DNA of 52,767 bases. It comes from a virus (taxonomy: Duplodnaviria; Caudoviricetes). This document shows positions 19,448-52,767 of the stretch, in pieces. Location: the IMG/VR virus record IMGVR_UViG_3300042319_001969, positions 1 to 52,767 of that record, one strand, 5' to 3'. Both the position numbers and the translations under genes were made by a program. Under the pieces are notes generated by a model. The model worked only from the letters and a program-made list of their open reading frames with translations, made no database searches and had not been told where the DNA came from. Every line of letters starts with the position of its first letter. Position 1 is the first letter of the stretch.

Positions 19448-19453
19448 AATCTA

Positions 19454-19482
19454 ATTATACATTATTTGTATAATTTTGTCAA
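19454..19482 (-). promoter_or_regulatory. Consensus sigma70/sigmaA promoter, probably giving a leaderless mRNA
   Basis: TTGACA-N17-TATAAT with only 6 nt before the ATG at 19447. Confidence 0.85.
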
Positions 19483-19488
19483 TGGATA

Positions 19489-19851
19489 TTAGATATTTCC
19501 GCCTTGAGGCATCTGAGGCATTCCTTGTTGTTTCATTAAAAGTGTTTTTAATAACTCTTCGCCCATTTCAGGCATTTCTTCTTGTTCGCCTTGTAACATT
19601 CGTAATAATGCTGCAATTCCTAAACCACCAGCTCCTGCTGCTGCCCCTGCACCAATACCACCTGCGGCCATTGGATTAGCAGTAGCAAACTTAGAAACTC
19701 CAGTTAAAGCTGGGCCTGCAATGTCTCGTAAACCACGAGCTCCTTGACCGACCATACCGCCAGCGCCTTTAAGCAAACCTTTACCAGCTTCCATAGCTGG
19801 GCCTGCTCCTTGTTTTAACATATTAATTAATTGCATTAATTGTGCGTTCAT
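19489..19851 (-). CDS. Gly/Ala/Met-rich protein, probable ejection protein
   Basis: 120 aa, hydrophobic Gly-rich stretch, SD AGGA. Confidence 0.6.
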   Translation of the reverse strand: MNAQLMQLINMLKQGAGPAMEAGKGLLKGAGGMVGQGARGLRDIAGPALTGVSKFATANPMAAGGIGAGAAAGAGGLGIAALLRMLQGEQEEMPEMGEELLKTLLMKQQGMPQMPQGGNI

Positions 19852-19874
19852 ATTAAATTCCTATATAGAATTGC

Positions 19875-28324: not shown

Positions 28325-29077
28325 TTATGGTTTTATATCGTACCAGAAGTCGCCTGTAACTTGACCTATAGGTTCGTTTTGAGCTACTTCAATCCATAAG
28401 CCGCCTTCTGCTCTATAGTTTATTTCATATACGAATATTTTACCGCTACCATTGTTTTTAAGTTCTGTAATAGTAGCTAACCATAATGCAGCATTAGGCC
28501 TGTCTGGAATAGTAGTTGAGTACTTAGCAGCTTCTGTAGCTGATAAATACAATCTACTACCTTCCATTATACCACTTATACTAGCACTGTCAACAATATT
28601 TGCAAAATTTGCAACATCTACGTTTCCAAATACTAATACTGGAGTAAAAGCATTTTTAATTGACGAATATCGTAAAACTCCAACCATCTTAGATTTAGTC
28701 GGGTCAGACGCTATAGCAGTAGTAAATAGTTTATGACTACCTTGAGCTCCTGCCCAACTTACTGGAGCTCCGGCTGGAAGGTCTAAATTGCTATCGTTTT
28801 TACCAATATCTCCTAATTTATTGTAATAATCAATTTGGTCGCTAAGAGTTTTTAAGTTTTCAATTACAGCAACCATTACTTCTGTTATAGTAAGTCCTTG
28901 GCTAAGACTACGCTTTACTTGTTCAAATAGCTGGTTCCAGTCATTTATAGTAACGCTTTTGCTAGCTAAAGTCTTAAATAAAGGAATATACCAAGTAGGA
29001 AGGTTGTTAAAACCTTCTATATTGTTTTCAAAATAGTTAATGATGTCATCTAATGTTGCATTAACTGGGATTGGCAT
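28325..29077 (-). CDS. Tail-associated protein (fibre adaptor-like)
   Basis: C-terminal EP...GDFWYD motif common in fibre proteins; position. Confidence 0.6.
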   Translation of the reverse strand: MPIPVNATLDDIINYFENNIEGFNNLPTWYIPLFKTLASKSVTINDWNQLFEQVKRSLSQGLTITEVMVAVIENLKTLSDQIDYYNKLGDIGKNDSNLDLPAGAPVSWAGAQGSHKLFTTAIASDPTKSKMVGVLRYSSIKNAFTPVLVFGNVDVANFANIVDSASISGIMEGSRLYLSATEAAKYSTTIPDRPNAALWLATITELKNNGSGKIFVYEINYRAEGGLWIEVAQNEPIGQVTGDFWYDIKP

Positions 29078-39200: not shown

Positions 39201-40901
39201 TTAATTAAATTTATCCCAATTGTCAACTATAAAATCATTTTCTCCATTTTCTTCATCTGTAGATAATGGATTGTATGTTTTAGTTTTGTTGGCAATTTGT
39301 GTCCAAATTTCCGTAAACTCTGAGGGGTCCTTGGGGAAAGGAGGTAACGGAGCCATAGCATATCTTACCGCATCCGGTAAGTGGTTGTTAGAATCCATAG
39401 GCTTTTCGCCTTGGTTCTTTTCGTCCCCTAATCCTCTGGATGGATATTTGTAAGAACGCATCTCTTTATACAAATAATGTAAAGTCTTGAAGAACTTTAC
39501 CTTTCCATACCGAGCATATGATGACAGCTTACTAATAGTTGGAGCCAATGAGTCATGCTCCATGTTTTCTGCTGGCACAATCATTATACCATGTTCATTA
39601 TAGGCATCTATCCATGACTTTCCTGAAACTTGGTCTCTGTTTCTTCCTCTTGGGTCACCTTGACGAGGATATGCCCATAAATAGTCAGGAACTCCAGCTT
39701 CTGCATCTTTTATTCGTTTAATTGCTTCAGTAATGTCTTTATCTTCCAAAGAAATGTAAACTTCCTTGTAAAAGTAAATAACTTGTTTACCTGGGTCTAT
39801 AGCCCCTAAGACATACGCAGTTGGGTCACGTCTTCCGAAGTCTACCCCAGCAATTCGTTGCCAATGTTCTGGAATTACAAACGGGTCGCAGAACCATTTA
39901 TTGAAATCAGGGTAAACTAACCCTTCAGTATATTTAAAAGACCCTTTAAGGTAACGATTAATCCACCACTCTTCTTTATTGGCCGCTAAGTCACGTTCGT
40001 AGTTAGTGGGCAAGTAGTAGTTTGCAGATGTGGCTGCAATATGTGTAGAAACAGCTTGTTCTCTAGCAGTAGGTGGTACTTCGTATCTGTCTTGAACGTT
40101 ACCGTGATAGTATATTTTATCAGAAACCATAAGCCAGTTAGTATTTAACCAACCAACGTCAGGGTTACTAGAGAGCAACATCTTTAATCTGTCTTTGCCT
40201 TTGTAAAAAGCATTCTTATTACGCAAACGAGCAGCAATGTATGCAACGACAGAGTAATCTACTTCGCTAGCTTCCTCTACCCAGATAAGGGTTAAGTTAG
40301 CTGAGCGAATCTTACCTTCTTTGTCTAAGGCTTTAGCTGAAATGCGTGAGCCGTTAATTAAATCTATGTACCAGTTTACTTTATCTTGATTTGATTTGAT
40401 GACTAGCTTAGCTGGAACATTATCTATAATGAATTTCAAGCAGGTATCGCTAACTTGCCCCCAAGTGCTAGCACCAACTAGGGCTGAAGAGTTAGGAATT
40501 TGTAAGATGGTACCGATAAACTCCATGCCTGCTGTATAAGTCTTAGCAGAACCGAATCCACCAGCATATAGTTTCTTCATATGTTGGTCAATATGGAATA
40601 TTTCTTGATGAGGCATAGGCTTATATCGACAAACGTACGAGTTACAAGTAGGGCAGTGCACAAAAAACTCAGCTTGTTTACCACTAAACGAAGTTACTTC
40701 TTCGAATTTGCTATAATTACACCGTGGGCAGGTATCACCTATCTCACAAGTGTAAATTCCTTTAGCAGTTTTGGTAAACGCTCTAGATTTTTCTAGTTCT
40801 ACCACTTCTTTTACAGTCTCCTTGACAGATTGTGTCAAAGAAACTGTAGTAGTGGCTTCAAACTTAGCTAGGGTGTCTAATAGTTTTTTGTTATCTGCCA
40901 T
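39201..40901 (-). CDS. terL: Terminase large subunit with N-terminal zinc ribbon
   Basis: GGFGSAKT, WVEEASE, SSNP, GVDFGRRDP, NHLPDAVRYA; N-terminal CPRC...CPTC. Confidence 0.92.
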   Translation of the reverse strand: MADNKKLLDTLAKFEATTTVSLTQSVKETVKEVVELEKSRAFTKTAKGIYTCEIGDTCPRCNYSKFEEVTSFSGKQAEFFVHCPTCNSYVCRYKPMPHQEIFHIDQHMKKLYAGGFGSAKTYTAGMEFIGTILQIPNSSALVGASTWGQVSDTCLKFIIDNVPAKLVIKSNQDKVNWYIDLINGSRISAKALDKEGKIRSANLTLIWVEEASEVDYSVVAYIAARLRNKNAFYKGKDRLKMLLSSNPDVGWLNTNWLMVSDKIYYHGNVQDRYEVPPTAREQAVSTHIAATSANYYLPTNYERDLAANKEEWWINRYLKGSFKYTEGLVYPDFNKWFCDPFVIPEHWQRIAGVDFGRRDPTAYVLGAIDPGKQVIYFYKEVYISLEDKDITEAIKRIKDAEAGVPDYLWAYPRQGDPRGRNRDQVSGKSWIDAYNEHGIMIVPAENMEHDSLAPTISKLSSYARYGKVKFFKTLHYLYKEMRSYKYPSRGLGDEKNQGEKPMDSNNHLPDAVRYAMAPLPPFPKDPSEFTEIWTQIANKTKTYNPLSTDEENGENDFIVDNWDKFN

Positions 40902-40904
40902 TTA

Positions 40905-41369
40905 TTAGTTTGGTTTACTTGGAGTAATTAAACCAATCTTTTTGTTAATCAACACGTCGACTGATTTTTCTTCTATGCCGGCTTCTAAAAGAATTTCTTT
41001 TGCTAACACCACAGCGGCAATTCGATTAGTTTCGTTATTACGGGCGGTGAGCAGAGTGTCTTCTTTGCCTAAAGCTGCATCAATGGCTTCTTTAGCATTC
41101 TTGTGAGCTTCGGAATCTTCGAATACTTGTTTAGTTGGAAGAATTCTTTTTAGGAATTTACCGAACACACCATTCCAATGGTCATGCACAGGGACTTTAC
41201 CGTTTTTTTCAATCAGAGAAATAGAATACGCTTCTAGCACTCCCATGAAAATTGACGTAAACTCTTCTGGTGTAAACATTGCTCCAATGAATTTAATCTT
41301 AACATTGTCGACATCGTCCGTCTTAAGCGTAACGTGTATACCGCGGCTTTCTGCTTTCTTCTTTGCCAT
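40905..41369 (-). CDS. Hypothetical protein upstream of TerL (terminase small subunit by position only)
   Basis: 154 aa, SD AGGAGG. Confidence 0.6.
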   Translation of the reverse strand: MAKKKAESRGIHVTLKTDDVDNVKIKFIGAMFTPEEFTSIFMGVLEAYSISLIEKNGKVPVHDHWNGVFGKFLKRILPTKQVFEDSEAHKNAKEAIDAALGKEDTLLTARNNETNRIAAVVLAKEILLEAGIEEKSVDVLINKKIGLITPSKPN

Positions 41370-41401
41370 AATTGTTTCCTCCTTTATGGGCTTCTAAATA
41401 T

Positions 41402-41410
41402 ATTATAGCA
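41402..41410 (-). promoter_or_regulatory. Extended -10 promoter for the packaging operon
   Basis: TGCTATAAT upstream of the 41369 SD. Confidence 0.55.
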
Positions 41411-41687
41411 CAATGTTTTGTTTTTTACTAGTACTTTTTAACAAAATGTTTTTTAACCATAAAGCAATGATAAGATTTAATATCCAGAATGGGGTAATTG
41501 GTAACATGATAAACGTCCAAATAGATGCCGCCAGAGTATAGCCGGTGTTATCTTTAAACAAGAATCCGTAGACTAATGGCAGTATCCAGATTAACGAAGT
41601 AATGATATTAGCAATTATCCAGCTTAACCAGCCTTGCCACGTTAATAATAGTTCTTTAAGTTGTCTTTTTAGTTTTTCGTAAACCAT
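41403..41687 (-). CDS. Small membrane protein (2-3 TM)
   Basis: Trp-rich hydrophobic helices, basic termini. Confidence 0.7.
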   Translation of the reverse strand: MVYEKLKRQLKELLLTWQGWLSWIIANIITSLIWILPLVYGFLFKDNTGYTLAASIWTFIMLPITPFWILNLIIALWLKNILLKSTSKKQNIVL

Positions 41688-41733
41688 AATCTTAGGAATG
41701 TTCTACCTCTTTTTATAGGAATAATATGCAGTA

Positions 41734-41812
41734 TGGTGGAGTAGGTGGGAGTTGAACCCACGTTTTAACCTACGTCCAGTTAAGGTTATAGGTTAACTTA
41801 CCCGACTACCCC
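41734..41812 (-). ncRNA. Minimal tmRNA-like tRNA-like-domain RNA (Ala identity, encoded CCA, no mRNA-like domain)
   Basis: Acceptor stem GGGGTAG/CTACTCC-ACCA with G3:U70; T-arm GTGGG-TTCAACT-CCCAC; stemless D-region; 9-bp helix TTAACCTAT/GTAGGTTAA. Confidence 0.8.
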
Positions 41813-41900
41813 TTGATTTGCTAGAGAGCAATAGACGCTAATAAAGGGAGTTTGGGTTTAAACTATGCTTGGTCCTTTAGGCTATGCTCTCTAACTGGAC
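41813..41900 (-). ncRNA. Structured 5' domain/leader of the tRNA-like RNA
   Basis: Long hairpin TAGAGAGCA..TAAAGG/CCTTTA..TGCTCTCTA; 5' GTCCAGTTA complementary to the loop of the tRNA-like domain. Confidence 0.6.
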
Positions 41901-41965
41901 ATAGTTAATCATACCTCACCGCCATTGTCAACTAAAACTTGAAAGCAGTTTCACACATTTAACAA

Positions 41966-41994
41966 TTGACTTGGTTAGTTTATTGGCTTAAACT
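41966..41994 (+). promoter_or_regulatory. Early rightward promoter
   Basis: TTGACT-N17-TAAACT just upstream of AGGAGG at 42001. Confidence 0.6.
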
Positions 41995-42011
41995 TCGTGC
42001 AGGAGGTACAT

Positions 42012-42188
42012 ATGGTAACCATATACACGCTATACGGCATCGACAAGTATGGGCGCACAAAGTTTCACGGCAGATTCGGTAGCCGTCACAGAATGCTTAG
42101 TGCAGTCCGTGGGCTTGGATTAGTTAGCTGGTTCTACGAATCAGAACAAAAACAAGACCAATATGGAGCTTTGACAGTAAACGTCTAA
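42012..42188 (+). CDS. Small early hypothetical protein
   Basis: ATG 42012 after AGGAGG. Confidence 0.7.
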   Translation: MVTIYTLYGIDKYGRTKFHGRFGSRHRMLSAVRGLGLVSWFYESEQKQDQYGALTVNV

Positions 42189-42377
42189 AGTTCCTAGTTT
42201 AATCAAAAAGTGATGAGTTGAGGTCAATCCTATGTATGGCCCTTTAGGACAGGTGTGGGACCCAATTAAGACCCCTAGCCCCTAGTTTGTGAATTATGGT
42301 TTTGTTGTTTAGTGAGTAAACTCAAATTTACTCATAGGTTAATCCGTGACCTATACATACCTTGGAGGTATAAGAAA

Positions 42378-42689
42378 ATGGCTAAAGCAAAAGAAGTCGC
42401 AGTTTCAGTGTTCGAAGATTTCAGTGAAAAAGTTATCGTGCGTGTTGACCCTAGCAAGTTAATCGCGTATGTCCAAGTCGGCATCAATGACTTTGGCGAC
42501 CGCGAAGTAAAAGCTTACAACATTTACGACTTGACGGATGCGCACATCATCATGCACAACCTCAAGAAAGAGTTCACACGCAAAGACTTAACGGTTGTAG
42601 CTAATACTCACATTGGCAAGACACCCGGTTTGAAGTTCTTTACGGCAAAGCAAGTCTTACATATCTCACGCACCGTAGTTTCTAAATAA
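42378..42689 (+). CDS. Early hypothetical protein
   Basis: ATG 42378 after GGAGG; followed by a terminator. Confidence 0.8.
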   Translation: MAKAKEVAVSVFEDFSEKVIVRVDPSKLIAYVQVGINDFGDREVKAYNIYDLTDAHIIMHNLKKEFTRKDLTVVANTHIGKTPGLKFFTAKQVLHISRTVVSK

Positions 42690-42692
42690 AAC

Positions 42693-42731
42693 AAAAGGGT
42701 TAAGCGCAACGGAACGCTTAGCCCTTTTTTT
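42693..42731 (+). terminator. Rho-independent terminator
   Basis: GGGTTAAGCG/CGCTTAGCCC stem + T7. Confidence 0.85.
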
Positions 42732-43128
42732 ATTCCGGGAGGTACATAGGAGGGTGTCCCCCTAGATTCTATGAATATCCTTTCTCTTATCAGAGGAAAG
42801 GGGGGACTATAGGGGGGATAGGAGTTAATTCTCTTTACACATATGTATAGTATCTTATAGATTAGTGTAATTTATATCCAACCCATATCTATCTTTTATA
42901 CACTTACTGTCTAATCTCTATGACACTTGTATTCCTAGAGATAAGTAATGTGTGTTCCCAGGTCAGAGACTATCCAACTCACAGAGTTATATTACTATGT
43001 AATATAAACTAACAAGTTTTATTCCCCGGTTTTACAATTTTCGTCAAATGGTTTTGTTCTTTTGTGTATTATTTATTGTTTTTTCATAGATAATACGAAT
43101 ACATAAAACCTAAAAGGAGGTTAAAACT

Positions 43129-43395
43129 ATGTACAAAGTAATAATCGGAAGTGTAGTCGTGGCTAGAGTGTTCACTATGGACGAAGGTAGAGAAGTGTTA
43201 AAAGAATATGGTTTAATTGGCTTGCAAGAAAATGAAGGTGAGAGTGGTGACTACGCGATTATCGAAGAAAAAGTCTACGAATTAGTTGTTCACAATAAAG
43301 TCGTCGCTAAAGGTAACACCCGTGAAGAATTATTAGACCTTGCTAAAGACTATGTTCCTAATTATTTAAAATTTAGAATTCAGGAAATTAAATAA
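43129..43395 (+). CDS. Early hypothetical protein made of two similar halves
   Basis: YKVIIGSVVVARV vs YELVVHNKVVAKG; SD AGGAGG. Confidence 0.8.
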   Translation: MYKVIIGSVVVARVFTMDEGREVLKEYGLIGLQENEGESGDYAIIEEKVYELVVHNKVVAKGNTREELLDLAKDYVPNYLKFRIQEIK

Positions 43396-43407
43396 CATGT
43401 AGCTTAC

Positions 43408-43436
43408 AAAGGTATACTTATAGTATACCTTTTTTT
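43408..43436 (+). terminator. Rho-independent terminator
   Basis: AAAGGTATAC/GTATACCTTT + T-run. Confidence 0.8.
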
Positions 43437-43437
43437 A

Positions 43438-43990
43438 TGCTTGAAGGCTCATAGCGCGTAAGGCCTTCGGCACAGGGAATAATCCTATGGATTCGGCTTA
43501 TTAATTTGCTCACTAAAGTCGTTCGCAATTAAACGCCTCAAGATTTTTTGTTCACTACACCCGTATCCGCATAGACTTCGGACTAAACCGTCCTGCGTTC
43601 TCTGCTACTACCGGTTCCGTTCACAATCAAAGCTAACGCATAGTCCACCGCATTCTCTATCCTCGACAACTCTTCGCTAAAGGCTCGATTGTCTGCGGGC
43701 GGTGAGATTACTACGCGCCGAGAACACCTTTCGTTTCATTACGCTAAACCGCTTCATTACACTACAGGTAATCTCTTTGCTTGTAATGTAGTGTAAGCGC
43801 TAGGCTTACGCATAACTCATTCAGTCCCAGAAATGCCTGCCAAATGCAGTCAGTTCTGGTCCTTGATGAGGTAAACATTTAAGACACTACAGCCGTCCGC
43901 CCGTTCGCTAAACCGCTCACTACGCTACCGAGCTTCCGTGTCTTTAAATGTTACAAAGGCTTACAAGTTTGTCTGCGCACGCGCATCCAA
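43438..43990 (-). other. Large GC-rich structured non-coding element (ncRNA or ssDNA structure)
   Basis: At least 7 hairpins with recurring GA/GA and GAA/GTA internal loops and TTTA-containing loops on the - strand. Confidence 0.75.
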
Positions 43991-44217
43991 AATTGTTTCG
44001 CTTATATTTCTTTTCTTAAAGAGAAAAGAAATAGAACTAAAAACTACTAAGCTTTCAGCTAAAGCGGTTCTTGTTTTTTGTGAATTACATTTCGTTTTTC
44101 ATAGATTTGTTTTGCTTAGTTAAAAGGAGTAAGCATAAATAACAAATATGAAAGGCGTTTTGTTTATTCTTCTCTTCGTGAGTATTCATAAACAAAACAC
44201 AAAAGGAGTAAAAATTT

Positions 44218-45135
44218 ATGAAAAAAGAAGTTGCCGACAACTTAGCATTTTTGTCAGACATTGGTTCTATGGAAAGAACCGAAACTCAAGACTCTATTCG
44301 TTTAGACAATTATACAGGTGAACACCGTGAAATGCTTCGCAGAAAATACTTTGTAGGTCCTTACGGTAATAACTTAGTTAATCCTTGGTTTCATACCGAT
44401 AAGTTTACAAAGTCTATGATTCAAAAAGATTTCAAATGTAAGATTAATTTTGACGATTATCGTAACAACGAAGAGTTGTATGGACAAGTCAGAGTTGACG
44501 AAGCCGAAATGGACTTAGAAGAAATGGGTATGGCTATGCCAGACCACTTCCGTGTAGACCCAATGGTTGAAGAGTCAGACACCAGTCCAAAAGCTACGCT
44601 TGATATTGAGTCGTACAATGCCTTAGAAGAGCACTTAAAGCAAGGCTTAAAGAAACGCTTTATCATGTTGCTAAATTATGATACATATTTTAGCTTTTAT
44701 AGAGCAATTACTACTAGTTATTTGACACATGGTTTTGTGTATGAGTACCAAAATTATCAAATCAAATCTGCTATCAAGGAAATTGCTAAGCAACTAGCCG
44801 ATACAGCAGTCGTTGAGTTCTTAAAAGTTAATCGTGATACTAGCGTTTACCGCGATAAATCAACTATATTTTCTAAAGATGGAATTTCATTCGAAATTAT
44901 ACCTAACGAATTCGAACCAGAGTTCATTAGAACTTACCAATCAGCTTTACAAGCATTATATGGTTTTAAGATGACACCCGATACTAATATCGAAGACTTC
45001 GTCAAAACTATTAGTTCAGATGTTGACATGCGAGAAGAAGTTCTATATTTAATTTTACCTCAAGAAGTAAATCTTAGAGACTTACATCAAGACGATGTCG
45101 AAGATGAAGTAGAAGAATTAGTCGAAGTCGAATAA
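44218..45135 (+). CDS. Acidic early hypothetical protein
   Basis: 305 aa, SD AAGGAG. Confidence 0.85.
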   Translation: MKKEVADNLAFLSDIGSMERTETQDSIRLDNYTGEHREMLRRKYFVGPYGNNLVNPWFHTDKFTKSMIQKDFKCKINFDDYRNNEELYGQVRVDEAEMDLEEMGMAMPDHFRVDPMVEESDTSPKATLDIESYNALEEHLKQGLKKRFIMLLNYDTYFSFYRAITTSYLTHGFVYEYQNYQIKSAIKEIAKQLADTAVVEFLKVNRDTSVYRDKSTIFSKDGISFEIIPNEFEPEFIRTYQSALQALYGFKMTPDTNIEDFVKTISSDVDMREEVLYLILPQEVNLRDLHQDDVEDEVEELVEVE

Positions 45136-45142
45136 ATAAAAT

Positions 45143-45169
45143 AAGCACTCTTAACGGAGTGCTTTTTTT
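45143..45169 (+). terminator. Rho-independent terminator
   Basis: AAGCACTC/GAGTGCTT + T-run. Confidence 0.85.
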
Positions 45170-45247
45170 ATAAAGGAAGGGTCATAGATAACCTTTCTTT
45201 TTCTCTCTTTTTGTCGCGTCAAAAGAAAGGTTTATGGAGGTAAACTT

Positions 45248-45463
45248 ATGAGCAATCGCGTTCGAAAGCCTAAAGTCTATAAGACAAAGACTTCGTATAT
45301 TATTAAGTATACAAAGTTCTCAGCCTATAGTGGTGAGTATGAATATCGTTTAAATGCGTATTCTGCGAACCAAGCCCAGTATTTGTTTTACAAATATTTT
45401 TCACCTAGCTATCACAGAGTTAGGACCATTATCGAAGCTAATGCTTTTGTAAGCATTATATGA
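45248..45463 (+). CDS. Small basic hypothetical protein
   Basis: 71 aa, SD GGAGG. Confidence 0.75.
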   Translation: MSNRVRKPKVYKTKTSYIIKYTKFSAYSGEYEYRLNAYSANQAQYLFYKYFSPSYHRVRTIIEANAFVSII

Positions 45464-45476
45464 AAGGAGGAAATGT

Positions 45477-45818
45477 ATGTACATTGTATTAAACACTCTA
45501 GTCTACGACGAAAAAGATTTACATATTTTTATTTTAAAAATTAACGCTATGAAATACTTAGCGTCAATGTCTTCGCCAAAAGACTTTGTAATTCTAGATA
45601 TTAACTTTAAATTTGTTAATGATATCAAAGATTATCTTAAAAAATTATTTAAAGTTGAAAAGAAAATTATTGAACCAGTTTTAGCTACCTCAGTTCAACA
45701 ACCAATTCAAGAACCAGTTCAAGAACCAGTTCAAGAACCCGTTGTTACACAAGTTCAAGCAACAATCGTTCAAGAAGTTAAGGCTCCAGCAGATTATCCA
45801 ATTGACGAAACAAAGTAA
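45477..45818 (+). CDS. Hypothetical protein with QEPV tandem repeats
   Basis: SD AGGAGG; 12-nt repeats at about 45692-45740. Confidence 0.75.
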   Translation: MYIVLNTLVYDEKDLHIFILKINAMKYLASMSSPKDFVILDINFKFVNDIKDYLKKLFKVEKKIIEPVLATSVQQPIQEPVQEPVQEPVVTQVQATIVQEVKAPADYPIDETK

Positions 45819-46053
45819 TTATACGAATTTTGTCAAAAAAAGTCGCTATGCGTAGAGAATTTTTCTCTATATATAATACATTTTTTTAAAAAACTACTAT
45901 ATAAATATATAATTTATTAACTAAATAATATATAAATTAAGTCTTTTGACAAAAAGTGTATAAAAAAACTAAAGTTGAGGTAGTGTGCGTCTCTCTCTTT
46001 TTGTGAGCGACGACACACACTCACAAAATATATTCATATAGGAGGAAATAAAT

Positions 46054-46425
46054 ATGAATAAAGGTAGTCGTGAATTAGCCGTGACGGTTTTGTCTTTGAC
46101 GAGTCCAGCGAGGATTGCTCAAATTGCTAAAGAAAAAGCATTGAATCCTCAAGAAGTCTATGTGAGAGCAACTTGCGAATACGCAGGTAAAACTTTCACA
46201 GTTTCTAATAAGCTTCGCTTTCTAAGTCAAGATGGTTATACCAAATTGATGAATGCTAAGCAAAGCAAAGAAACTATTAATATTGTGATTTCGCCTGCGG
46301 CAGATAATATTAATTATTATTTTTATTTAGAAAATACCGCAGTAGATGTTGCTTCGCTATTCAAAGAACCAGTTAAGCAACCAGACATTCGCGTCAAAGT
46401 CGAAGACTTATATAAGAATTTGTAA
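46054..46425 (+). CDS. Hypothetical protein
   Basis: 123 aa, SD AGGAGG. Confidence 0.8.
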   Translation: MNKGSRELAVTVLSLTSPARIAQIAKEKALNPQEVYVRATCEYAGKTFTVSNKLRFLSQDGYTKLMNAKQSKETINIVISPAADNINYYFYLENTAVDVASLFKEPVKQPDIRVKVEDLYKNL

Positions 46426-46440
46426 CCTTCATCGGTAGTT

Positions 46441-46479
46441 AAAAGGCTTTAGGTTTTCCGTAACTTAAAGCCTTTTTTT
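46441..46479 (+). terminator. Rho-independent terminator
   Basis: AAAAGGCTTTA/TAAAGCCTTTT + T-run. Confidence 0.8.
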
Positions 46480-46500
46480 TATTCTAAAAATAAGGAGGCT

Positions 46501-48276
46501 ATGAATGTGGAATTCAAAGCAATGGTATTAAACGAAGCTGGAGATAGCTATGCTATGGATAGCGATTTTAATTTTACTAAAGATAGTACTAAGGGTATAG
46601 TGTTCTCTTTAAACACAGATTCAAGCGTTGAAGATTTCATTAATTATATTATGAGTATGCTTAATGAAAAAGAAGACACTTACACAGTTGAAATTTTTTC
46701 AGATGTTAATCCTAACTCTTTTGGAAAATTGACTTTTAATAAATCTATGCTTTCTGCCTCATTTGATGTTAAAGCTGCCACAGATGAAAGAGCTTTTGGT
46801 AAATTTATAGCAGAAAATATAGCACAAGCTATTAAAGATATCCCAACCACTAGTATTCTTTCAGGTATTTCAGAACTTATGGAGGCTGCTGCTAAAGGCA
46901 GTTCAAGAACCCCTAGTTCAAAAGACCCAAGCTTAAGCGAAGATGAGCAATTCATAGAAAAAATTAAAGACTTTACTAAAACAGATATTGTAAAGCCAAC
47001 AGAAACTATTGTAGATTATATAGCAGATGATGATTTACTTGATGAACTAAAAGAAATTATTGACTTTCAAAACAATTCAGATAAATACTCTAAGTTAGGT
47101 ATTGAAATACCTAAAGGCGTATTATTCAAAGGTCCTCCAGGTACTGGTAAGACCTATGCTGCTAAATGTATTGCCGGTAGTAGTAATAGTTATTTTATGG
47201 TAACTACTGCTAGTGCCTTACAAGGTCAATATATTGGTAGTGGCGCCGAGAATATTCGTAAAATATTTACAGGCGCTAGAGAGCTAATTAAAAAGACAAA
47301 GAAAGGTGTAATGATATTCATAGATGAGCTTGACTCATTCGGTAGTCGCACAAGCCATTCGGGAAGCGCAAGCGGTGAGGAAGACCGAACCCTTAATCAA
47401 TTGCTTGCCGAGTTATCTGGATTTAATCCAACCGATAAGATAATGGTGTTAGCTGCGACAAACTTTGTAGAGCGTTTAGATGAAGCGCTTTTAAGAAGTG
47501 GCCGTTTAGGTCGCCAAATTACTATTGATTATCCTACAGAAATTCAAAGACGCCATTTAGTAGACTATTATTTTAAGAAATTTAAGTTACACGACACAGG
47601 TACAGATATTATTTCAGACTTAGTTGACGGCTTATCCCCTGCGGATATAAAAGCCGTTTCTAATGAGTCTGCTATATTAGCAGTCCGTAACTCTCGTGAA
47701 GAAATTATGCTTGACGATATTAATGAAGCGATTAACAAAACTATTACTAAGAATGTTAAACGAAAAGACATTAAGAAAGACAAGTATTTAGTTTCAGCAC
47801 ACGAAATGGGACATGTCTTAGCAGAAGCTTTGTATCTAAAGACTTGCCCATTAAAAGTCACAAATGATACTTATGGAGACTCAGGAGGATTTACTCAAAC
47901 AACAAATCACTTAAGTGGCATTACAAAACAAGAAAGGTATTCTGCCGAAGTTAAAATGTTAATGGCAGGCCGTGCCGCAGAGCAAGTGATTTGTGGATAT
48001 ATAACTAACGGAGCAAGTAGTGACCTTCAAAGAGCTAATAAACTTGTAAAAGCCTATTTTCAGGTTTATAACTTTGAGCCCTATGATGTGTCAAAACTTG
48101 ACCAGTTAGTACAAGACAAAATTCATAGTCTTTATACGGAAACCGTAAAAGATTTTGAATTACACAAAGACTTGCTTAAGTCTTTGACAGACGAGTTGAT
48201 GACTAAGTCTACTATTTATCGTTCATTGTTAGCTATTCTATTATCTCCAGTGTTAACTAAAGGAGGAATTTTATGA
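46501..48276 (+). CDS. ftsH: FtsH-like AAA+ zinc metalloprotease (M41) lacking transmembrane anchors
   Basis: GPPGTGKT, pore YIG, IFIDELD, TLNQLL.E, ATN..LDEALLRSGR, HEMGH, MAGRAAE, GASSD; hydrophilic N-terminus. Confidence 0.9.
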   Translation: MNVEFKAMVLNEAGDSYAMDSDFNFTKDSTKGIVFSLNTDSSVEDFINYIMSMLNEKEDTYTVEIFSDVNPNSFGKLTFNKSMLSASFDVKAATDERAFGKFIAENIAQAIKDIPTTSILSGISELMEAAAKGSSRTPSSKDPSLSEDEQFIEKIKDFTKTDIVKPTETIVDYIADDDLLDELKEIIDFQNNSDKYSKLGIEIPKGVLFKGPPGTGKTYAAKCIAGSSNSYFMVTTASALQGQYIGSGAENIRKIFTGARELIKKTKKGVMIFIDELDSFGSRTSHSGSASGEEDRTLNQLLAELSGFNPTDKIMVLAATNFVERLDEALLRSGRLGRQITIDYPTEIQRRHLVDYYFKKFKLHDTGTDIISDLVDGLSPADIKAVSNESAILAVRNSREEIMLDDINEAINKTITKNVKRKDIKKDKYLVSAHEMGHVLAEALYLKTCPLKVTNDTYGDSGGFTQTTNHLSGITKQERYSAEVKMLMAGRAAEQVICGYITNGASSDLQRANKLVKAYFQVYNFEPYDVSKLDQLVQDKIHSLYTETVKDFELHKDLLKSLTDELMTKSTIYRSLLAILLSPVLTKGGIL

Positions 48277-50288
48277 AGTTAACTTTATCAATCCCATATT
48301 CAGACATTAAAGCAAACTTAGTAGATTCTTATTCGCCAGACTTTCCATTGCTAATAGTTAAAGATTTAGACCCAGATGTTATTATACATACAGCTAAAGA
48401 AATTAATAATCCTAATTCATTAATGAACTTTATACCTAAAGTATTAATGACTTTTAAAGCATTAGCAGCAGTTAAAAAACCTTTAGGTTCAATTAACTAT
48501 GCTAAGTATGAAACTGGTGAATATATCACAAATCTTAATTTGTTTAGAACTAAACAAACTTCATTTTTATTTGACCCTTTTACAAAGCTAGGTATTAATC
48601 TTCACAAGTTATTACTTGGTATTGATTCTAAAGAAACTAAACTTTATTTAGATACTGCGCTTATAGCACATTTAAGTAGATTAAGTCAAGAGATTCAAAA
48701 TCAAATGACTTTGTATTTAATTTCATTAATTCATTTGTTTATTAGTCTTAATGAATTACAAATAGATAAAAATTTATTTAATTTATCTAAACTTTCATCT
48801 TCAGAATTAAGAATTAAACATTTGACATGGGCAACTTTGCCTAGTCTTATTAAGACTTTTAATGCCGATGTTAACATTGAATTAGTAGAAACTCAAACTT
48901 CTAAAATTACTTACTTAGAAGTTTTTCAAGACACTTATTCTTCTAATATACCTATCGCAGTTACAGGTCAAGCCCCAAGTAGCTATATGATTATCAAAAG
49001 TCCTAGTAATGAGTACTCTTTATTACTTAAAACCCCAAGTAAAGATTATTTTAATATCAACTTTGATACCTCAGAGATTCAAACTACTTTGAATCTTACT
49101 TATTTAGACTTTGATTCAGACTCTCATCCTATTGGATTTGCGGGCAGTATGCCTAATAACTCAAACCCAGTAGTAATTATTTACAATAAAACTATGGATT
49201 TATCTACATCCCAAAAATCTTTAATTTTAGAATCAGTTTCAGAAATTGAAAATGCTAAAGTTAAAGAAAAAGTAGAATCTTTTTTATCTAAATGCTCAAC
49301 TCTTAGAGAAATTGTAGAAGTTACTAACTTAGAAGATTTCTTTAAAGAGTTAAATAAAGATTATTTTGATACTAGTACAACTAGTCATGTATCTAATGAA
49401 TCTATTAAACTTCAATATACATCAGACGCATATGCCCAACAACTATATGCGCTTAATAAAAAAGTTATTGACAAATTAGGTCCAGTAGACTTACAAGACC
49501 TTTCTAATATTGTTCCAAGCGTTATTAAAGGTGAAACTTACAGTGCTATTTTTGTAGGTGAATCCGGTACCGGTAAATCTACCACTGCTAAGCAAATCTT
49601 TTACCAAGCAGGAATTCCTTTTGAAATTATTAACGCCAGTATTAATATCGAAGAATCAGATTTTATTGGCACAATGGTAGCTAATAAAAATCGTAAATCA
49701 GAACTAGACCCAATGTTTGTTTGGAAAGATGGTATCTTAACCAGAGCAATTAGAAATGGTTATGGAACTATTATTGAAGAACTTAACTTTGGTAGAGCAG
49801 GCGTTTTAGGTAAATTAAATTCATTGTTAGACGATTCTCGTCAAATTGAATTAGGCGATGGAACTATTCTTCAAGCACATCCTAACTTTAGATTGTTTGC
49901 TACAGGCAACATTGGCGAAGAAGGTACTCAGCGTTTAAATCGTGCTTTAATTAACCGTTTTCAACATGCTAAAAAGTTTAAACATTTAAACAAACAAGAA
50001 ACTATTAATTTAATAGCTGTTAAAACAAAGTATAAAGACTTAGATAAGCTAGAAAAGATTTATGTAGTGTACGACGCAGTTCGCAAGTACGCTAAAGAAA
50101 ATCAATTAAAACTAAGTATTTCTATTCGTCAGCTTATAAACATATTTATGGCACCTAAAGTCTATAAGAATGCGCACGACGCAGTTATAAACTTTATGAT
50201 TAATCAAGCATTTTTAGAAGAAACAGAACATCAAGAACACTTTGTAGAAACAGTACTATCCGTATTTGATTTAAAATTTAAACTATAA
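48273..50288 (+). CDS. MoxR/CbbQ/CobS-type AAA+ ATPase with a long unknown N-terminal domain
   Basis: GESGTGKS, WKDGILTRAIRNG, IEELN, HPNFRLFATGN, LNRALINRF. Confidence 0.88.
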   Translation: MKLTLSIPYSDIKANLVDSYSPDFPLLIVKDLDPDVIIHTAKEINNPNSLMNFIPKVLMTFKALAAVKKPLGSINYAKYETGEYITNLNLFRTKQTSFLFDPFTKLGINLHKLLLGIDSKETKLYLDTALIAHLSRLSQEIQNQMTLYLISLIHLFISLNELQIDKNLFNLSKLSSSELRIKHLTWATLPSLIKTFNADVNIELVETQTSKITYLEVFQDTYSSNIPIAVTGQAPSSYMIIKSPSNEYSLLLKTPSKDYFNINFDTSEIQTTLNLTYLDFDSDSHPIGFAGSMPNNSNPVVIIYNKTMDLSTSQKSLILESVSEIENAKVKEKVESFLSKCSTLREIVEVTNLEDFFKELNKDYFDTSTTSHVSNESIKLQYTSDAYAQQLYALNKKVIDKLGPVDLQDLSNIVPSVIKGETYSAIFVGESGTGKSTTAKQIFYQAGIPFEIINASINIEESDFIGTMVANKNRKSELDPMFVWKDGILTRAIRNGYGTIIEELNFGRAGVLGKLNSLLDDSRQIELGDGTILQAHPNFRLFATGNIGEEGTQRLNRALINRFQHAKKFKHLNKQETINLIAVKTKYKDLDKLEKIYVVYDAVRKYAKENQLKLSISIRQLINIFMAPKVYKNAHDAVINFMINQAFLEETEHQEHFVETVLSVFDLKFKL

Positions 50289-50297
50289 GGAGAATAT

Positions 50298-52643
50298 ATG
50301 TATACCCCATATGAATTACAAAAAATAGCAAACAAATGTTCTATTTTAGCTAATCCTTATGATTATCGTTTAAACAATAAAATTGTTTTAAAAGACATGA
50401 GTAGACCAGAAGATTATTCTTTAAGTTTAAATAACTATACTCATTTTATAAATAAATTATTATTTTCAATAGCTTCAGCAGTTTTAAAAGATGAATCTCA
50501 TAGTGTATTTAGTTCTGCTTTTGAAGACAAAATGTTTGCTTCAGATATCAAAAGATATGATTATGTAATTAATCATTTATTTTTAAAAGCTCCAGCAGAT
50601 AATCCTTTTTCAGTTAAAGGCGTTTTAACTAATGAAGCTCTAGAGTCAGACACCGAAAAAATTTCTCAAATTAATGGTAATGCTTTTCTATTTAAAATAT
50701 TTAATAGTTTTGGAATTAATTTAGATTACTATTTAAAACTTAAAAATATTGACTCTTCTTATCAAAAAACTTCTAACTTTTTCTTAAATAATGCTCATGT
50801 TTTTAATGCTGCTATTAAAAATATGAAACAAGAAGAACTTGAAGCATTATTTACATTTTCATTACATTTAAAAACTTCTATAGTAGAAGAACTCAGTTAT
50901 TTGTTTACAAACTTAAGTTTAGATTATCACAGTTTAAAACAAAAACAAAATGTTTACAATTTCTTAGAAGATTTATCAAATAAAAAACCAGACTTATCTT
51001 TAAAACTTTCATTTTACGACGCTTTGTTAAGACAAAATGAATTTTTAGAAGTATTACCAGACCAAATATATACCGATTGTTTAGATTCTAGATATGGTAA
51101 CAATTTAGCAACTAAACAACATAGATTAAATCGTATTGTTCAAGAGTATCCTTTAACTTCTTTTATTATCTATTACACTAGTAAATTAGAACAATATTTA
51201 GTTTACTACATTGAAATTTTACACATTGTTACACAAAAAATGTCAAAAAGTCAATCTCAATTTATCCTAGATTTATTTAGAGTAAATGGAGAAAACAAGT
51301 TTTTATCAGAAGCAGTATATAATCCTTTGACTAACATCTTTAATCCTAAAGTGGAAGAAATTATTGCTATAAAAGACAACGCTTTAAGATTCGAAGAAAT
51401 TCGTAACTATTTAAACTCAGAAATTGTTAAAGATTTAATTAAAAACACTTGTAAAAATTTAACAAAAATTTACAAAGACTTTGATACTAAAATTCTTAAC
51501 GACAAACTTTTACAAAGCTTTGACGCTTTTATGTTTCCAAACTTTGTAGCTAAATTTGTTATGGCATCTAATGAATATGCTATATTTAAAGATGCTGTAA
51601 AAACTTCAATTATTTTAATTGAATATGCTAAAAAAAATAAAATTAATTTAACAGTAGATTACACAGTTTTAAACGATGATGAAAAAGAACTTCTTGACAG
51701 TGCTGAGTCATCAGAAACTTTTTCAGACCCGTTTGCTAATTTTAATTATGAAGAAGATTTTAATGATACAGAATCTTTAAAACCTAAATCAGACTCTAAA
51801 GATAAACCAATAAGTCTTTCTACAGAGTTAGACAATACTATTTCTAACTTTAAAGAAAAGGGACATGACTTCACTTTAAAAGAAGTTAAAGCTTCAGACA
51901 ACTCTAAGAATCTTTACTTAGCCGTGTCTCAAAAAATTAAATTACTTAATAGTTTGTTAATTAAACAAATTAGAGACATCAAAACTTACAACCAAGGAAG
52001 TAAGCTTTCAGGTTTATTCAGTGGTAAAATTGATGCTAAAAATCTATATAAGTATGAAACTTCAGACAACTTGTTTTATAACAATAAGTATGAAATTAAA
52101 GAAATGGATTTAGCTTTTGGTATCGTATTAGACGCTAGTGGCAGTATGCAAGGAGACAAAATTACAGACGGTAAAGTATCTATGGTTTTATTACATGAAA
52201 CTTTAAGAGCTTTAAATATTAACCATTCTATTATTGACCACACAGCTAGAGGTAACCACACTTGTATTGTTAGAAAATATCATGACTTTAAAGAATCTAA
52301 AAACTATGATATTACTAAGTCTTATGCTATAATGGACATTGTAGCTAGAGAAGGCAATAACGACGCAGGAGCCTTGTATTACATGGAGAAAGCGTTGCTT
52401 AAAACTCAAAACAAAGACAAAATTTGTATTATATTTTCAGACGGCCAGCCAACAGAGTGTTCAGAACAAGAGTTAAAAGACCAAGTTAAAAGTATGGAAA
52501 AAAAAGGAATTAAGGTTATTGGTATTGGTATTAATCTTCCAGAGATTGCCGAATATTACACAGACTATGCAAATGGTAAAAACCTTAATGAAATGGTAAA
52601 AATTATTACAGACATCCTTAAACAATATGTATTGAATAAATAA
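50298..52643 (+). CDS. vWA-domain protein (CobT/NorD-like partner of the MoxR AAA+)
   Basis: SGKIDAKNL, DASGSM MIDAS, FSDGQP, VIGIGI. Confidence 0.88.
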   Translation: MYTPYELQKIANKCSILANPYDYRLNNKIVLKDMSRPEDYSLSLNNYTHFINKLLFSIASAVLKDESHSVFSSAFEDKMFASDIKRYDYVINHLFLKAPADNPFSVKGVLTNEALESDTEKISQINGNAFLFKIFNSFGINLDYYLKLKNIDSSYQKTSNFFLNNAHVFNAAIKNMKQEELEALFTFSLHLKTSIVEELSYLFTNLSLDYHSLKQKQNVYNFLEDLSNKKPDLSLKLSFYDALLRQNEFLEVLPDQIYTDCLDSRYGNNLATKQHRLNRIVQEYPLTSFIIYYTSKLEQYLVYYIEILHIVTQKMSKSQSQFILDLFRVNGENKFLSEAVYNPLTNIFNPKVEEIIAIKDNALRFEEIRNYLNSEIVKDLIKNTCKNLTKIYKDFDTKILNDKLLQSFDAFMFPNFVAKFVMASNEYAIFKDAVKTSIILIEYAKKNKINLTVDYTVLNDDEKELLDSAESSETFSDPFANFNYEEDFNDTESLKPKSDSKDKPISLSTELDNTISNFKEKGHDFTLKEVKASDNSKNLYLAVSQKIKLLNSLLIKQIRDIKTYNQGSKLSGLFSGKIDAKNLYKYETSDNLFYNNKYEIKEMDLAFGIVLDASGSMQGDKITDGKVSMVLLHETLRALNINHSIIDHTARGNHTCIVRKYHDFKESKNYDITKSYAIMDIVAREGNNDAGALYYMEKALLKTQNKDKICIIFSDGQPTECSEQELKDQVKSMEKKGIKVIGIGINLPEIAEYYTDYANGKNLNEMVKIITDILKQYVLNK

Positions 52644-52767
52644 GCCGTTATACGCTATTCGCTTTATAAACGGCTTAGGAGGTAGAATATGAATTCTGCA
52701 GAAAAGTATAGGCTTTATGAAATCTTATTCTATTTATATTTTAATAGACAAGATGATACTACAATCA
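51997..52767. repeat. Terminal direct repeat, copy 2
   Basis: Matches 1-771. Confidence 0.95.
52689..52767 (+). CDS. Truncated duplicate of the 693-1127 gene
   Basis: MNSAEKYRLYE...; runs off the window end. Confidence 0.8.
   Translation, partial: MNSAEKYRLYEILFYLYFNRQDDTTI

Follow-up and report, generated by a model that had tools for sequence, protein, structure and literature searches.

We found that a stretch of about 550 bases in an uncultured lake phage (the island, positions 43433-44000 of the window, by which we mean the whole 52,767-nucleotide stretch of DNA analysed, a 99%-complete virus record) has no coding capacity, folds in silico into 8 or 9 hairpins when each piece is folded alone, carries G·A oppositions in the internal loops of one strand, and ends five of its hairpins in tips that share UUUAG. 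What was observed is far beyond chance, and the stems are maintained by compensatory change between two strains of the phage. The island is probably a new large structured RNA. As the best explanation we propose, with a probability of about 0.5, a - strand RNA of about 560-600 nt that belongs to a new family of the ROOL/GOLLD kind and uses its repeated loops for docking a repeated partner.

Hairpins, G·A loops and common tips

The island was originally predicted to be a non-coding, GC-richer stretch, and its composition agrees with this: G+C is 0.415-0.475 and GC skew -0.11 to -0.29 in 200-nt windows from 43400 to 43999, against a G+C of 0.275-0.36 in the flanks and 0.335 on average in the window. 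Each of the six frames (about 184 codons) holds 7-16 stops, no ORF of at least 40 aa lies wholly inside 43438-43937, and only a doubtful 61-aa GTG frame (43938-44123) overlaps the end of the island. All the hairpins listed in the original prediction were reproduced by folding each stretch alone; folding added hairpins H0 and A3 and the weak region F. The features of the island and its borders are as follows.

43408-43432, no strand assigned: perfect 11-bp hairpin; on the + strand an intrinsic terminator, followed by 7 T
43436-43494, - strand: region F, weak hairpins by folding; the most variable part in strain X11
43495-43540, - strand: hairpin E; tip GACUUUA on a closing AC/GU, followed by a tandem G·A loop and by GC/GC
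43546-43628, - strand: hairpin D, an 83-nt rod; tip GGUUUA on GGAC/GUCC; internal loops GCA/GAA, GUA/GGA, GGA/GUA and tandem GA/GA
43628-43721, - strand: domain C; long stem of 43710-43719 with 43635-43644, then a CACCGC/GCGGUG section
43665-43693, - strand: apical hairpin C, in domain C; tip CUUUA on GC/GC
43718-43778, - strand: hairpin B; outer stems 43772-43775/43720-43723 and 43766-43770/43725-43729
within 43726-43769, - strand: inner rod of hairpin B; three GUA/GAA 3x3 loops with 2-bp helices between them; tip GGUUUA
43783-43815, - strand: hairpin A3; 6-bp stem, 5-nt loop
43816-43870, - strand: hairpin A2, 55 nt; tandem GA/GA loop and CA/GA loop; tip AUUUG
43871-43954, - strand: hairpin A; 14-pair outer stem with its arms lying in 43874-43887 and 43938-43952
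within 43871-43954, - strand: inner rod of hairpin A; GGA/GUA, GUA/GGA, GUA/GG and tandem GA/GA loops; tip GGUUUA
43961-43998, - strand: hairpin H0; interrupted 12-bp stem, 4-nt loop; the 5'-most hairpin if the island is a - strand RNA
44002-44036, no strand assigned: A+T-rich 15-nt inverted repeat, bordering the island on the high-coordinate side
44073-44108, + strand: promoter-like motif (T-run, GTG, then CATAGAT) preceding the 305-aa ORF 44218-45135

The strand asymmetry claimed for the mismatches was recovered, since the symmetric internal loops of the separate hairpin folds hold 29 G·A/A·G oppositions and 2 C·U/U·C on the - strand, and the + strand gives the mirror-image counts with C·U/U·C in place of G·A. 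When the - strand was folded as a whole, 26 G·A oppositions were present against 4.9±2.4 in 100 dinucleotide shuffles (maximum 15). Of tandem G·A loops it has five where the shuffles average 0.15, and of G·A-closed 3x3 loops five where they average 0.13 (maximum 1 for each; n=100). Hairpins A, A2, B, D and E together contain five tandem G·A loops and no fewer than eight GUA/GRA loops, including the three GUA/GAA 3x3 loops and 2-bp helices that had been noticed at 43726-43769. Because the purine-purine mismatches are confined to one strand, a function as double-stranded DNA does not explain them. Internal loops of structured RNAs are typically purine-rich, and the G·A loops count in favour of reading the island as a - strand RNA.

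The - strand folded as RNA reaches -190.4 kcal/mol (z -3.57; 0/100 shuffles as good) and the + strand -155.9 kcal/mol (z -3.11; 1/100 shuffles as good). Folding better than dinucleotide-shuffled controls, a check set by the original prediction, was thus observed, but the nearby intergenic stretches have z of -2.2 to -3.9, comparable to the island, and the folding energy alone is therefore unremarkable; the G·A pattern and the common tips, not the energy, set the island apart. With counts of 6 (- strand) and 7 (+ strand), G·U pairs favour neither. Also, the 3' arm of hairpin A3 (43787-43796) can pair instead with the 5' arm of hairpin B (43757-43766) in a perfect 10-bp helix, which competes with hairpin B, the two folds being mutually exclusive. 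A second candidate island at 19448-19874 was rejected as a Gly/Ala-rich ORF with a folding z of -1.30.

Five hairpins carry the related loops that had been predicted: A, B and D have GGUUUA, E has GACUUUA and C has CUUUA. UUUAG is invariant across the five aligned tips. A strict descriptor of this tip module matches 5 of the 390 TTTAG sites in the window, with 4 of the 5 matches at most 400 nt from the island, and it has 0 matches in five related sequences. The RNA-only cages of ROOL and GOLLD are homo-oligomers joined through kissing loops and A-minor contacts; judged from its sequence, GGUUUA has no self-complementarity.

Compensatory changes in a second strain

The phage is listed in 24 sequencing runs, with no RNA run among them, and 4 of the 24 were compared with the window. 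A second strain of the phage was found in a separate sequencing study (run X11), and it differs from the window by 11 substitutions within 43688-43990. Six of the 11 make up three compensatory double changes in stems predicted for hairpins A and B: the hairpin A pairs 43885/43940 and 43887/43938 both changed from G-C to C-G, and the hairpin B pair 43772/43723 changed from A-U to C-G. Placing the changes at random 100,000 times never produced three compensatory pairs, for a comparison that covers one variant strain of one lineage, and these stems had been predicted from the window sequence alone. The compensatory changes are compatible with either strand and with DNA as well as RNA.

When the changes were assigned to the parts of the fold, the inner rods together with A2 (141 nt) had received 1 of the 11 against 5.1 expected (P = 0.011), A2 itself having none. 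The stem of hairpin C is rewritten in X11, with one base added, a longer 6-bp stretch and the tip changed to GUUUA, and the hairpin is kept. Two other changes break - strand pairs, a U·G pair at 43770, where there is no cost on the + strand, and an A-U pair in stem C at 43666; the six changes listed in region F (43475-43488) are all uncompensated. The prediction of a functional - strand molecule is therefore partly upheld: the structure, the purine mismatches on one strand and the compensated stems all stand, but the - strand is not distinguished from the + strand (G·U counts of 6 and 7), nor RNA from single-stranded DNA.

Relatives, boundaries and alternative explanations

As the original prediction had suggested checking, the island was searched against Rfam, and no family matches it at gathering thresholds; at E up to 10 no rRNA model matches it either. 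By blastn, the island and 40001-48000 have no match in 50,697 phage records, the island has none in plasmids, and among 400 sampled Clostridia genomes it has a 40-nt match in one (E 0.0063, chance level). Viral contigs were also scanned for exact matches to the A/B tip with flanks, a B-rod descriptor and the B tip, with 0 hits for each. A three-loop pattern found 20 loci in viral contigs, of which 0/20 match the island (blastn, E 1e-3); the 12 inspected are coding repeats of Gly-Leu-Ala or collagen type, and the other 8 have the same match length and G+C as two of these 12. A stricter three-loop pattern found 2 loci in metagenome contigs, both unrelated tandem arrays of about 57 nt.

Relatives of the phage were found via the terminase (4/4 candidates in viral contigs, 1/11 in genomes), and the island has no blastn or nhmmer match in them. 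Their syntenic place holds no G+C-rich non-coding stretch, two of them (L008 and L009) being too short upstream to judge. The island is lacking in G001 (a complete genome, terminase 60% identical), in the available stretch of L038 (64%) and in the available part of G002, so that it is dispensable for this phage group. Of the structural conservation that was looked for in related genomes, that between strains is seen in X11, but the three more distant relatives are without the island, and conservation is seen at the strain level only.

Such a distribution is also what a non-functional or selfish palindromic DNA would give, a relic of insertion or local duplication whose arms are kept complementary by template switching inside quasi-palindromes as the DNA replicates and not by selection on a product. 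The island is limited to one lineage, its G+C is unlike that of the phage, as expected of foreign DNA, and it diverges more between the strains (about 30 differences in 558 nt) than the flank 44211-44513 (6 in 303). Moreover, a part made up of hairpin E, the linker and D's 3' arm resembles the sequence ahead of the next gene, which suggests local duplication. Template switching, however, raises complementarity and leaves the 29 G·A against 2 C·U unexplained, as it does the five common tips and the lower variation of the mismatch-rich inner rods relative to the perfect outer stems; and no transposase, integrase or terminal repeat was found flanking the island. We consider this origin unlikely. 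A 14-nt direct repeat (43404 / 43951) was dropped as an insertion scar, its frequency being about that of chance by a rough estimate.

On its low-coordinate side the island is bordered by the + strand terminator at 43408-43432, which ends the 88-aa ORF 43129-43395, and on the other side by the promoter-like motif of the 305-aa ORF; the same motif precedes the 88-aa ORF (CATAGA at 43085). With a + strand terminator before it and the next + strand promoter-like site after it, the island is not just a segment of a + strand mRNA. On the - strand, the hairpin 43408-43432 has an A-run before it and only UUUGU after it, a poor U-tract, and is a possible but weak candidate for the 3' end of an island RNA. 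Upstream of the island on the - strand there is no sigma-70-type promoter with a score of at least 9 of 12, and none scoring 10 of 12 anywhere in 43000-44400, although perfect consensus promoters are used elsewhere on the - strand of the phage; a k-mer hunt for a common - strand promoter gave noise only. These points count against the reading as a - strand RNA, as do the neutral G·U counts, the two - strand pairs broken in X11, the helix competing with hairpin B, the similar z-scores of the neighbours and the three relatives without the island.

The lack of a - strand promoter would suit a single-stranded DNA element, in which the - strand forms hairpins on unwinding, during replication or entry, and acts as an origin or priming signal or as docking for the primase-AAA+ protein or host proteins. 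The G·A pattern and the compensatory changes fit DNA hairpins equally, the - strand folds as well with DNA parameters (z -3.58; 0/100 shuffles as good), and an A+T-rich inverted repeat adjoins the island. The phage encodes a 929-aa primase that fuses DnaG Zn-ribbon, Toprim and AAA+ domains, an SSB and a family A polymerase, and single-strand initiation signals are likewise strand-specific imperfect hairpins, active only in single-stranded DNA. A phage primase, invoked in the original prediction, is present, but nothing connects it to the island. The island is also about five times longer than such signals, is built of repeated modules and belongs to a 52.8-kb double-stranded phage; the hairpin priming signals known to us are about 100 nt or less and come from single-stranded phages or plasmids, not from 50-kb double-stranded phages. 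Stable hairpins over 550 nt of a template strand would impede a replisome, and an essential origin should persist in the relatives that lack the island. We therefore regard a DNA element as quite improbable.

A + strand RNA was considered as well, starting at the CATAGA at 43570 and forming a long structured leader with pyrimidine-rich internal loops into the 305-aa gene. The 43570 site has the T-run-GT, TACA and CATAGA at the same spacing as the motif before the 305-aa ORF, the + strand also folds better than its shuffles, and the X11 change at 43770 costs it nothing. The site overlaps the 3' arm of hairpin D, however, and a start there would halve D and exclude E and F. A better copy of the motif stands 120 nt ahead of the 305-aa gene itself; the promoter-like motif is unproven and is not called by the consensus scan. 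Further, C·U/U·C oppositions confer no known stability, unlike the complementary G·A oppositions, and we find such a leader hardly credible. The sequence lacks the defining features of an integron attC site, of REP elements, of a tRNA-like anticodon decoy and of a TRAP-like triplet array, and these ideas were dropped.

Pfam and PHROGs gave no match for the 88-aa, 125-aa and 305-aa neighbours, the 305-aa protein has no relative in viral contigs or in phages (tblastn) and no usable match in an atlas search, and the 88-aa protein gave a poor single-sequence model (pLDDT 54.8). A 591-aa ATPase has only 6 matches, to giant-virus-like AAA proteins, and no TROVE/Ro60-like domain was found in the downstream AAA+/VWA proteins.

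The proposed RNA and known structured RNAs

If the island is the - strand RNA that we favour, it would be read from near 44000 to the hairpin 43408-43432 or close by, and would form a row of 8 or 9 hairpins in which A, B, C, D and E are stiff rods. These rods would consist of short Watson-Crick steps interspersed with internal loops of the tandem G·A and GUA/GRA (loop-E-like) types and would each end in a UUUAG-bearing tip, and they would fix five copies of one docking loop. Such an RNA could serve as a multivalent scaffold or sponge, its partner, of phage or host origin, being either an oligomeric protein or a single protein in several copies. More tentatively, it may be the first of a new class of ornate phage RNAs with 'G·A-zipper' rods, stems in which loop-E-like 3x3 and tandem G·A loops come every five nucleotides, and with five UUUAG loops. 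Like ROOL and GOLLD it might assemble by itself into a particle of RNA alone, or it might be a multivalent decoy for a loop-recognising host protein during infection.

Large structured phage RNAs known to us are few, and we know of no protein partner or function for ROOL or GOLLD, the latter of which was first seen in lake metagenomes. Both are described as encoded by phages or prophages, often near tRNA genes, and as forming RNA-only cages, with a multi-pseudoknotted fold in ROOL (PMC12286853). The likeness to ROOL that had been proposed holds for size (a model of 574 positions against an island of about 560 nt) and for setting, that is, phage-encoded and near a tRNA-like gene at 41737-41812, 1.6 kb away on the same strand. 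This gene, outside the island, is the sole Rfam tRNA match, and ARAGORN reports 0 tRNA genes in the window. The likeness does not extend to the covariance model: at E up to 10 the ROOL model (RF03087, gathering score 99.1 bits) finds nothing anywhere in the record, and neither ROOL nor GOLLD is among the 6 Rfam matches at E up to 10 in 43300-44250 (the presence of the GOLLD model in the library being unconfirmed). GOLLD shares with the island its lake source, this phage being present in lake-water sequencing runs. Unlike ROOL and GOLLD, the island is a row of independent G·A-rich rods with repeated identical tips; if expressed, it would add a family unrelated to both, simpler and more regular, made mostly of non-canonical G·A stems and identical tips.

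Repeat-array phage RNAs such as pseudo-ToxI and the RNA anti-CRISPRs consist of arrayed hairpin units and serve to decoy a host protein, and the island resembles them as a phage non-coding array of similar hairpin units. Their units are near-identical, in tandem and of fixed length, whereas the units of the island measure 46-94 nt, are irregularly spaced and have only the tip and the loop style in common; head-to-tail units of equal length and high identity were not found in the island. Its direct-repeat families have 2-4 copies of 70-92% identity at spacings of 164, 17 and 134 nt.

In sequence, loop E and tandem sheared G·A pairs are marked by GUA/GAA or GUA/GGA loops and by 5'-GA/3'-AG tandem loops, and at the sequence level the island resembles loop E and the sarcin-ricin loop in having GUA face GAA or GGA between Watson-Crick pairs. 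The rRNA motifs occur singly, as docking sites for proteins or factors, whereas those of the island follow one another along the stems at a 5-nt period, three consecutively in hairpin B; its loops are 3x3, in contrast to the 4x3 of the classical bulged-G motif, which is further characterised by a non-canonical pair geometry of sheared A·G, trans U·A and an S-turn. A kink-turn, in which tandem G·A pairs come directly after a three-nucleotide bulge on one strand, was not found in the hairpin folds, where the 2x2 loops that contain the tandem G·A are symmetric and have no one-sided bulge beside them. Consecutive loop-E-like motifs matter to RNA structure prediction, because nearest-neighbour rules score them as destabilising, and the island, if expressed, would be a tractable model for them and for the folding and binding of large phage RNAs. 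The comparison with X11, one variant strain of one lineage, also indicates that strain variants in public read sets can give covariation evidence for an element with no detectable homologs. Lastly, the island contains 6 copies of GUAGU, where 0.6 would be expected.

Hairpin content of the island

The phage genome (52,767 nt, completeness 99%, G+C 33.5%) is arranged in three blocks, and the island lies in the 822-nt gap between an 88-aa ORF (43129-43395) and a 305-aa ORF (44218-45135) of the last one.

Gene blocks of the phage genome
1-13.9 kb, + strand: replication genes (exonuclease, SNF2 helicase, SSB, DnaG-type primase-AAA+ fusion, family A polymerase)
14 to 41.7 kb, - strand: structural genes, including terminase (39201-40901), portal and major head protein
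From 42 kb, + strand: small-gene block, then three large AAA+/VWA proteins

No ORF of at least 40 aa was found inside 43438-43937, and all six reading frames carry 7-16 stops each across the island. Its G+C is 0.415-0.475 and its GC skew is negative (-0.11 to -0.29), meaning that G exceeds C on the - strand. When each stretch was folded alone, every hairpin of the original prediction was recovered and three further hairpins were added.

Predicted hairpins of the island from single-stretch folds, 5' to 3' on the - strand
43998-43961, - strand: H0
43954-43871, - strand: A
43870-43816, - strand: A2
43815-43783, - strand: A3
43778-43718, - strand: B
43721-43628, - strand: C domain, with apical hairpin C at 43693-43665
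43628-43546, - strand: D
43540-43495, - strand: E
43494-43436, - strand: F (weak)

The fold predicted for hairpin B reproduces the claimed three 3x3 loops of the GUA/GAA type, each set off from the next by a 2-bp helix. In A and D there are GUA/GGA, GGA/GUA and GCA/GAA loops besides tandem GA/GA loops, and A2 and E have one tandem GA/GA loop each. A perfect 10-bp helix is possible between 43787-43796 and 43757-43766; it would unfold A3 and B, and could be a conformational switch or no more than a side effect of the recurring GUAGUG motif. On its - strand the island has six copies of GUAGU (0.6 expected).

When the hairpins are folded singly, oppositions in symmetric internal loops of the - strand are G·A or A·G 29 times and C·U or U·C twice. 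Compared with 100 dinucleotide-preserving shuffles, the whole-region fold contains 26 G·A oppositions (shuffles 4.9±2.4, maximum 15), 5 tandem G·A loops (0.15, maximum 1) and 5 G·A-closed 3x3 loops (0.13, maximum 1). Further, UUUAG is invariant in the aligned tips of A, B, C, D and E; a sixth row of the alignment (44046-44081), with the same letters in another structural setting, was excluded. A strict module descriptor, requiring UUUA with 0-3 preceding bases as the tip, a closing helix of 2-4 Watson-Crick pairs and, beyond this helix, either a 3x3 loop closed by G·A or a tandem G·A loop, was matched by 5 of the 390 TTTAG sites in the window, namely A, B, D, E and one site within a gene (17183), and by no site in five related phage sequences found via terminase (G001, G002, L008, L009 and L038). 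Folding energy is the weakest part of the case, because nearby intergenic stretches also reach z of -2.2 to -3.9 while the island, which folds better than its shuffles on both strands, has z of -3.57 (- strand) and -3.11 (+ strand) with RNA parameters, and -3.58 and -2.80 with DNA parameters. One other strongly structured intergenic stretch, 42690-43128 (z -3.94 for the + strand and -3.77 for the - strand, equalled by 0 of 100 shuffles in both cases), holds G-run/C-run palindromes at about 42740-42830 and a + strand terminator at 42700-42721.

Natural variation and the choice of strand

The island is real and statistically strong, and its structure is conserved at the strain level. Contigs of four sequencing runs (X6, X8, X9, X11) were aligned to 42900-44600; X6, X8 and X9 have an identical island wherever covered, and X11, from a separate study, represents a strain at 90-97% identity. 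This one strain provides the variant evidence, and its differences within 43403-43658 are partly listed. Its contig over 43688-44232 shows 14 differences, 11 of them within 43688-43990, and six of these 11 substitutions make up three base pairs of the structure predicted beforehand from the window alone.

Compensatory pairs in X11
43885/43940, - strand: G-C to C-G, inner part of the outer stem of A
43887/43938, - strand: G-C to C-G, outer stem of A
43772/43723, - strand: A-U to C-G, outer stem of B

When 11 substitutions were placed at random 100,000 times, no placement produced three such double changes and 55 produced two. Among the remaining changes, one at 43770 disrupts a terminal U·G pair and four fall at unpaired positions. 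The inner rods of A and B together with A2 (141 nt) received one of the 11 changes where 5.1 were expected (P = 0.011), so the G·A-rich parts are better preserved than the surrounding Watson-Crick stems. Hairpin C is rewritten in X11 (loose contig ends, about 43652-43688): a one-base insertion in the 5' arm and a G to A change in the 3' arm remove a bulge and form a six-pair stretch, one A-U pair of the stem is lost (43666), and, as we read the alignment, GUUUA replaces CUUUA at the tip and A·A plus A·G replace the tandem G·A. In region F, at the 3' end of the island, none of the six listed changes (43475-43488) is compensated. Separately, in X11 the N-terminal half of the 88-aa ORF, 142 nt starting with its initiation codon (43133-43276), is swapped for 139 unlike letters, and the adjoining island is still about 94% identical.

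The X11 compensations, all Watson-Crick to Watson-Crick, are as compatible with one strand as with the other, and with DNA as with RNA. Mismatches of the G·A type are about 15 times commoner than C·U on one strand, which duplex function cannot account for. This purine-purine bias is the sole strong pointer to strand and indicates the - strand; G·U pairs (6 on the - strand, 7 on the + strand) favour neither. A palindromic relic maintained by template switching is judged unlikely. A single-stranded DNA signal, equally compatible with the compensations and with the bias, is judged improbable. We favour a - strand RNA of 560-600 nt, to which we assign a probability of about 0.5, and the island is probably a new structured RNA. 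Together with the rival readings, this leaves a share of the probability unassigned. The RNA would consist of rods in a row, made stiff by the stacking of non-canonical pairs, and five of the rods would carry the same UUUAG-bearing tip; the design looks like a means of displaying one ligand site in multiple copies at set distances. Such a rod-and-tip design suggests a scaffold or sponge for a tip-binding protein, or contacts between copies of the RNA.

On the + strand, the hairpin at 43408-43432 is followed by seven T and is an intrinsic terminator; in the - strand reading it is followed only by UUUGU. A promoter-like + strand motif, CATAGA, is located at 43085 and 44100 and recurs before early genes. 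As the island lies between the + terminator and the + promoter-like motif, it is not simply part of an early mRNA. A + strand leader, in whose favour a weaker copy of the motif within the island may be cited (CATAGA at 43570; 43526-43580), is very improbable. The likeness of this copy to the one at 44100 over about 50 nt hints at a local duplication. The recurring motif (43041-43095, 44056-44110, 45140-45190) consists of a T-run, GTG and CATAGAT about 45 nt ahead of the start codon, and is possibly an early promoter or operator specific to this phage. No - strand promoter of at least 9/12 was found upstream of the island, and none of at least 10/12 in 43000-44400. In the structural block, four perfect - strand TTGACA-N16-18-TATAAT sites (37035, 28593, 21894, 19482) are present, so the late genes seem to rely on promoters that follow the host consensus.

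Known families and relatives

Loop E / bulged-G and tandem sheared G·A motifs are known from ribosomal RNA, and parts of the island share them at the sequence level. At the Rfam gathering score no family matched the island, the sole match in the window being a tRNA-like gene (41737-41812); permissive filters over 43300-44250 gave six chance-level matches to small RNA families (E 0.64-2.4), with SNORD75 (43534-43577) alone inside the island. The ROOL model (574 positions) gave no match at E up to 10, ARAGORN found no tRNA, and a tandem-repeat array was rejected since the island units are not tandem repeats. ROOL and GOLLD are described, in a cryo-EM paper, as large, phage-borne, near tRNA genes and of unknown function (PMC12286853). 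The island is similar in kind, being large, phage-borne and adjacent to the tRNA-like gene, but by the single available test it is a member of neither. Full-text literature on ROOL, GOLLD and phage noncoding RNA and, from 2023 on, on large bacteriophage noncoding RNAs in covariation or metagenomic work yielded nothing similar, and we have not seen such a stringing-together of loop E-like and tandem G·A motifs described. Two metagenome contigs met only via the search pattern, L036 (about 100-590 of the stretch examined) and L037 (about 100-915 likewise), carry long tandem arrays of ~57-nt hairpin-forming units with GCG(G/A)TTTAGCG, non-coding by eye and unrelated to the island.

The stretch is contained in 24 DNA sequencing runs from 21 studies, most labelled lake water, and the closest cultured phages are two Paenibacillus phages (terminase identity 38%). 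No sequence relatives of the island were found in the collections searched. The terminase search gave four relatives among viral contigs (83, 63, 60 and 60% identical) and, among genomes, one 53.9-kb contig in a Clostridia MAG (L038, 64%). Nothing in G001, a complete relative of 53,430 nt, matched the island, and its syntenic place holds only a 311-nt gap of 24% G+C ahead of a weakly similar 286-aa ORF (21% identical over 285 residues, E 0.003). In the stretch of L038 examined there is no island, the rise in G+C there coinciding with a genuine ORF and a tRNA. L008, the closest relative, stops 890 nt upstream of its terminase and stood outside this comparison. Since G001 and the examined stretch of L038 are without it, the island is an accessory feature of a single lineage. 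The L038 contig (53,894 nt) is phage-genome sized and probably represents a related phage whose genome was binned into the MAG, a weak hint of Clostridia as host group.

Other features of the genome

Two very large - strand proteins are encoded in the structural block, at 13994-19447 (1816-1817 aa) and 29077-32964 (1294-1295 aa); neither matched Pfam, and the latter had no match in PHROGs. The tRNA-like gene (41737-41812, - strand) scores 46.6 bits with the Rfam tRNA model and has an encoded 3' CCA, is not called by ARAGORN, and holds 11 nt at the anticodon loop position instead of the five of the model; an unusual tRNA, a tRNA carrying an insert and a tRNA mimic are all conceivable. Three consecutive large early proteins at 46501-52643 are an FtsH-like AAA+ protein with an M41 peptidase piece (591 aa), a MoxR/CobS-like AAA_5 protein (671 aa) and a CobT-like VWA protein (781 aa), the C-terminus of which is duplicated by a 5'-open ORF at 3-647. 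The window ends (1-771 and 51997-52767) are 98.3% identical, with 13 mismatches and 0 gaps, which reflects either a terminal repeat in direct orientation or a circular genome whose assembly ran across two strains.
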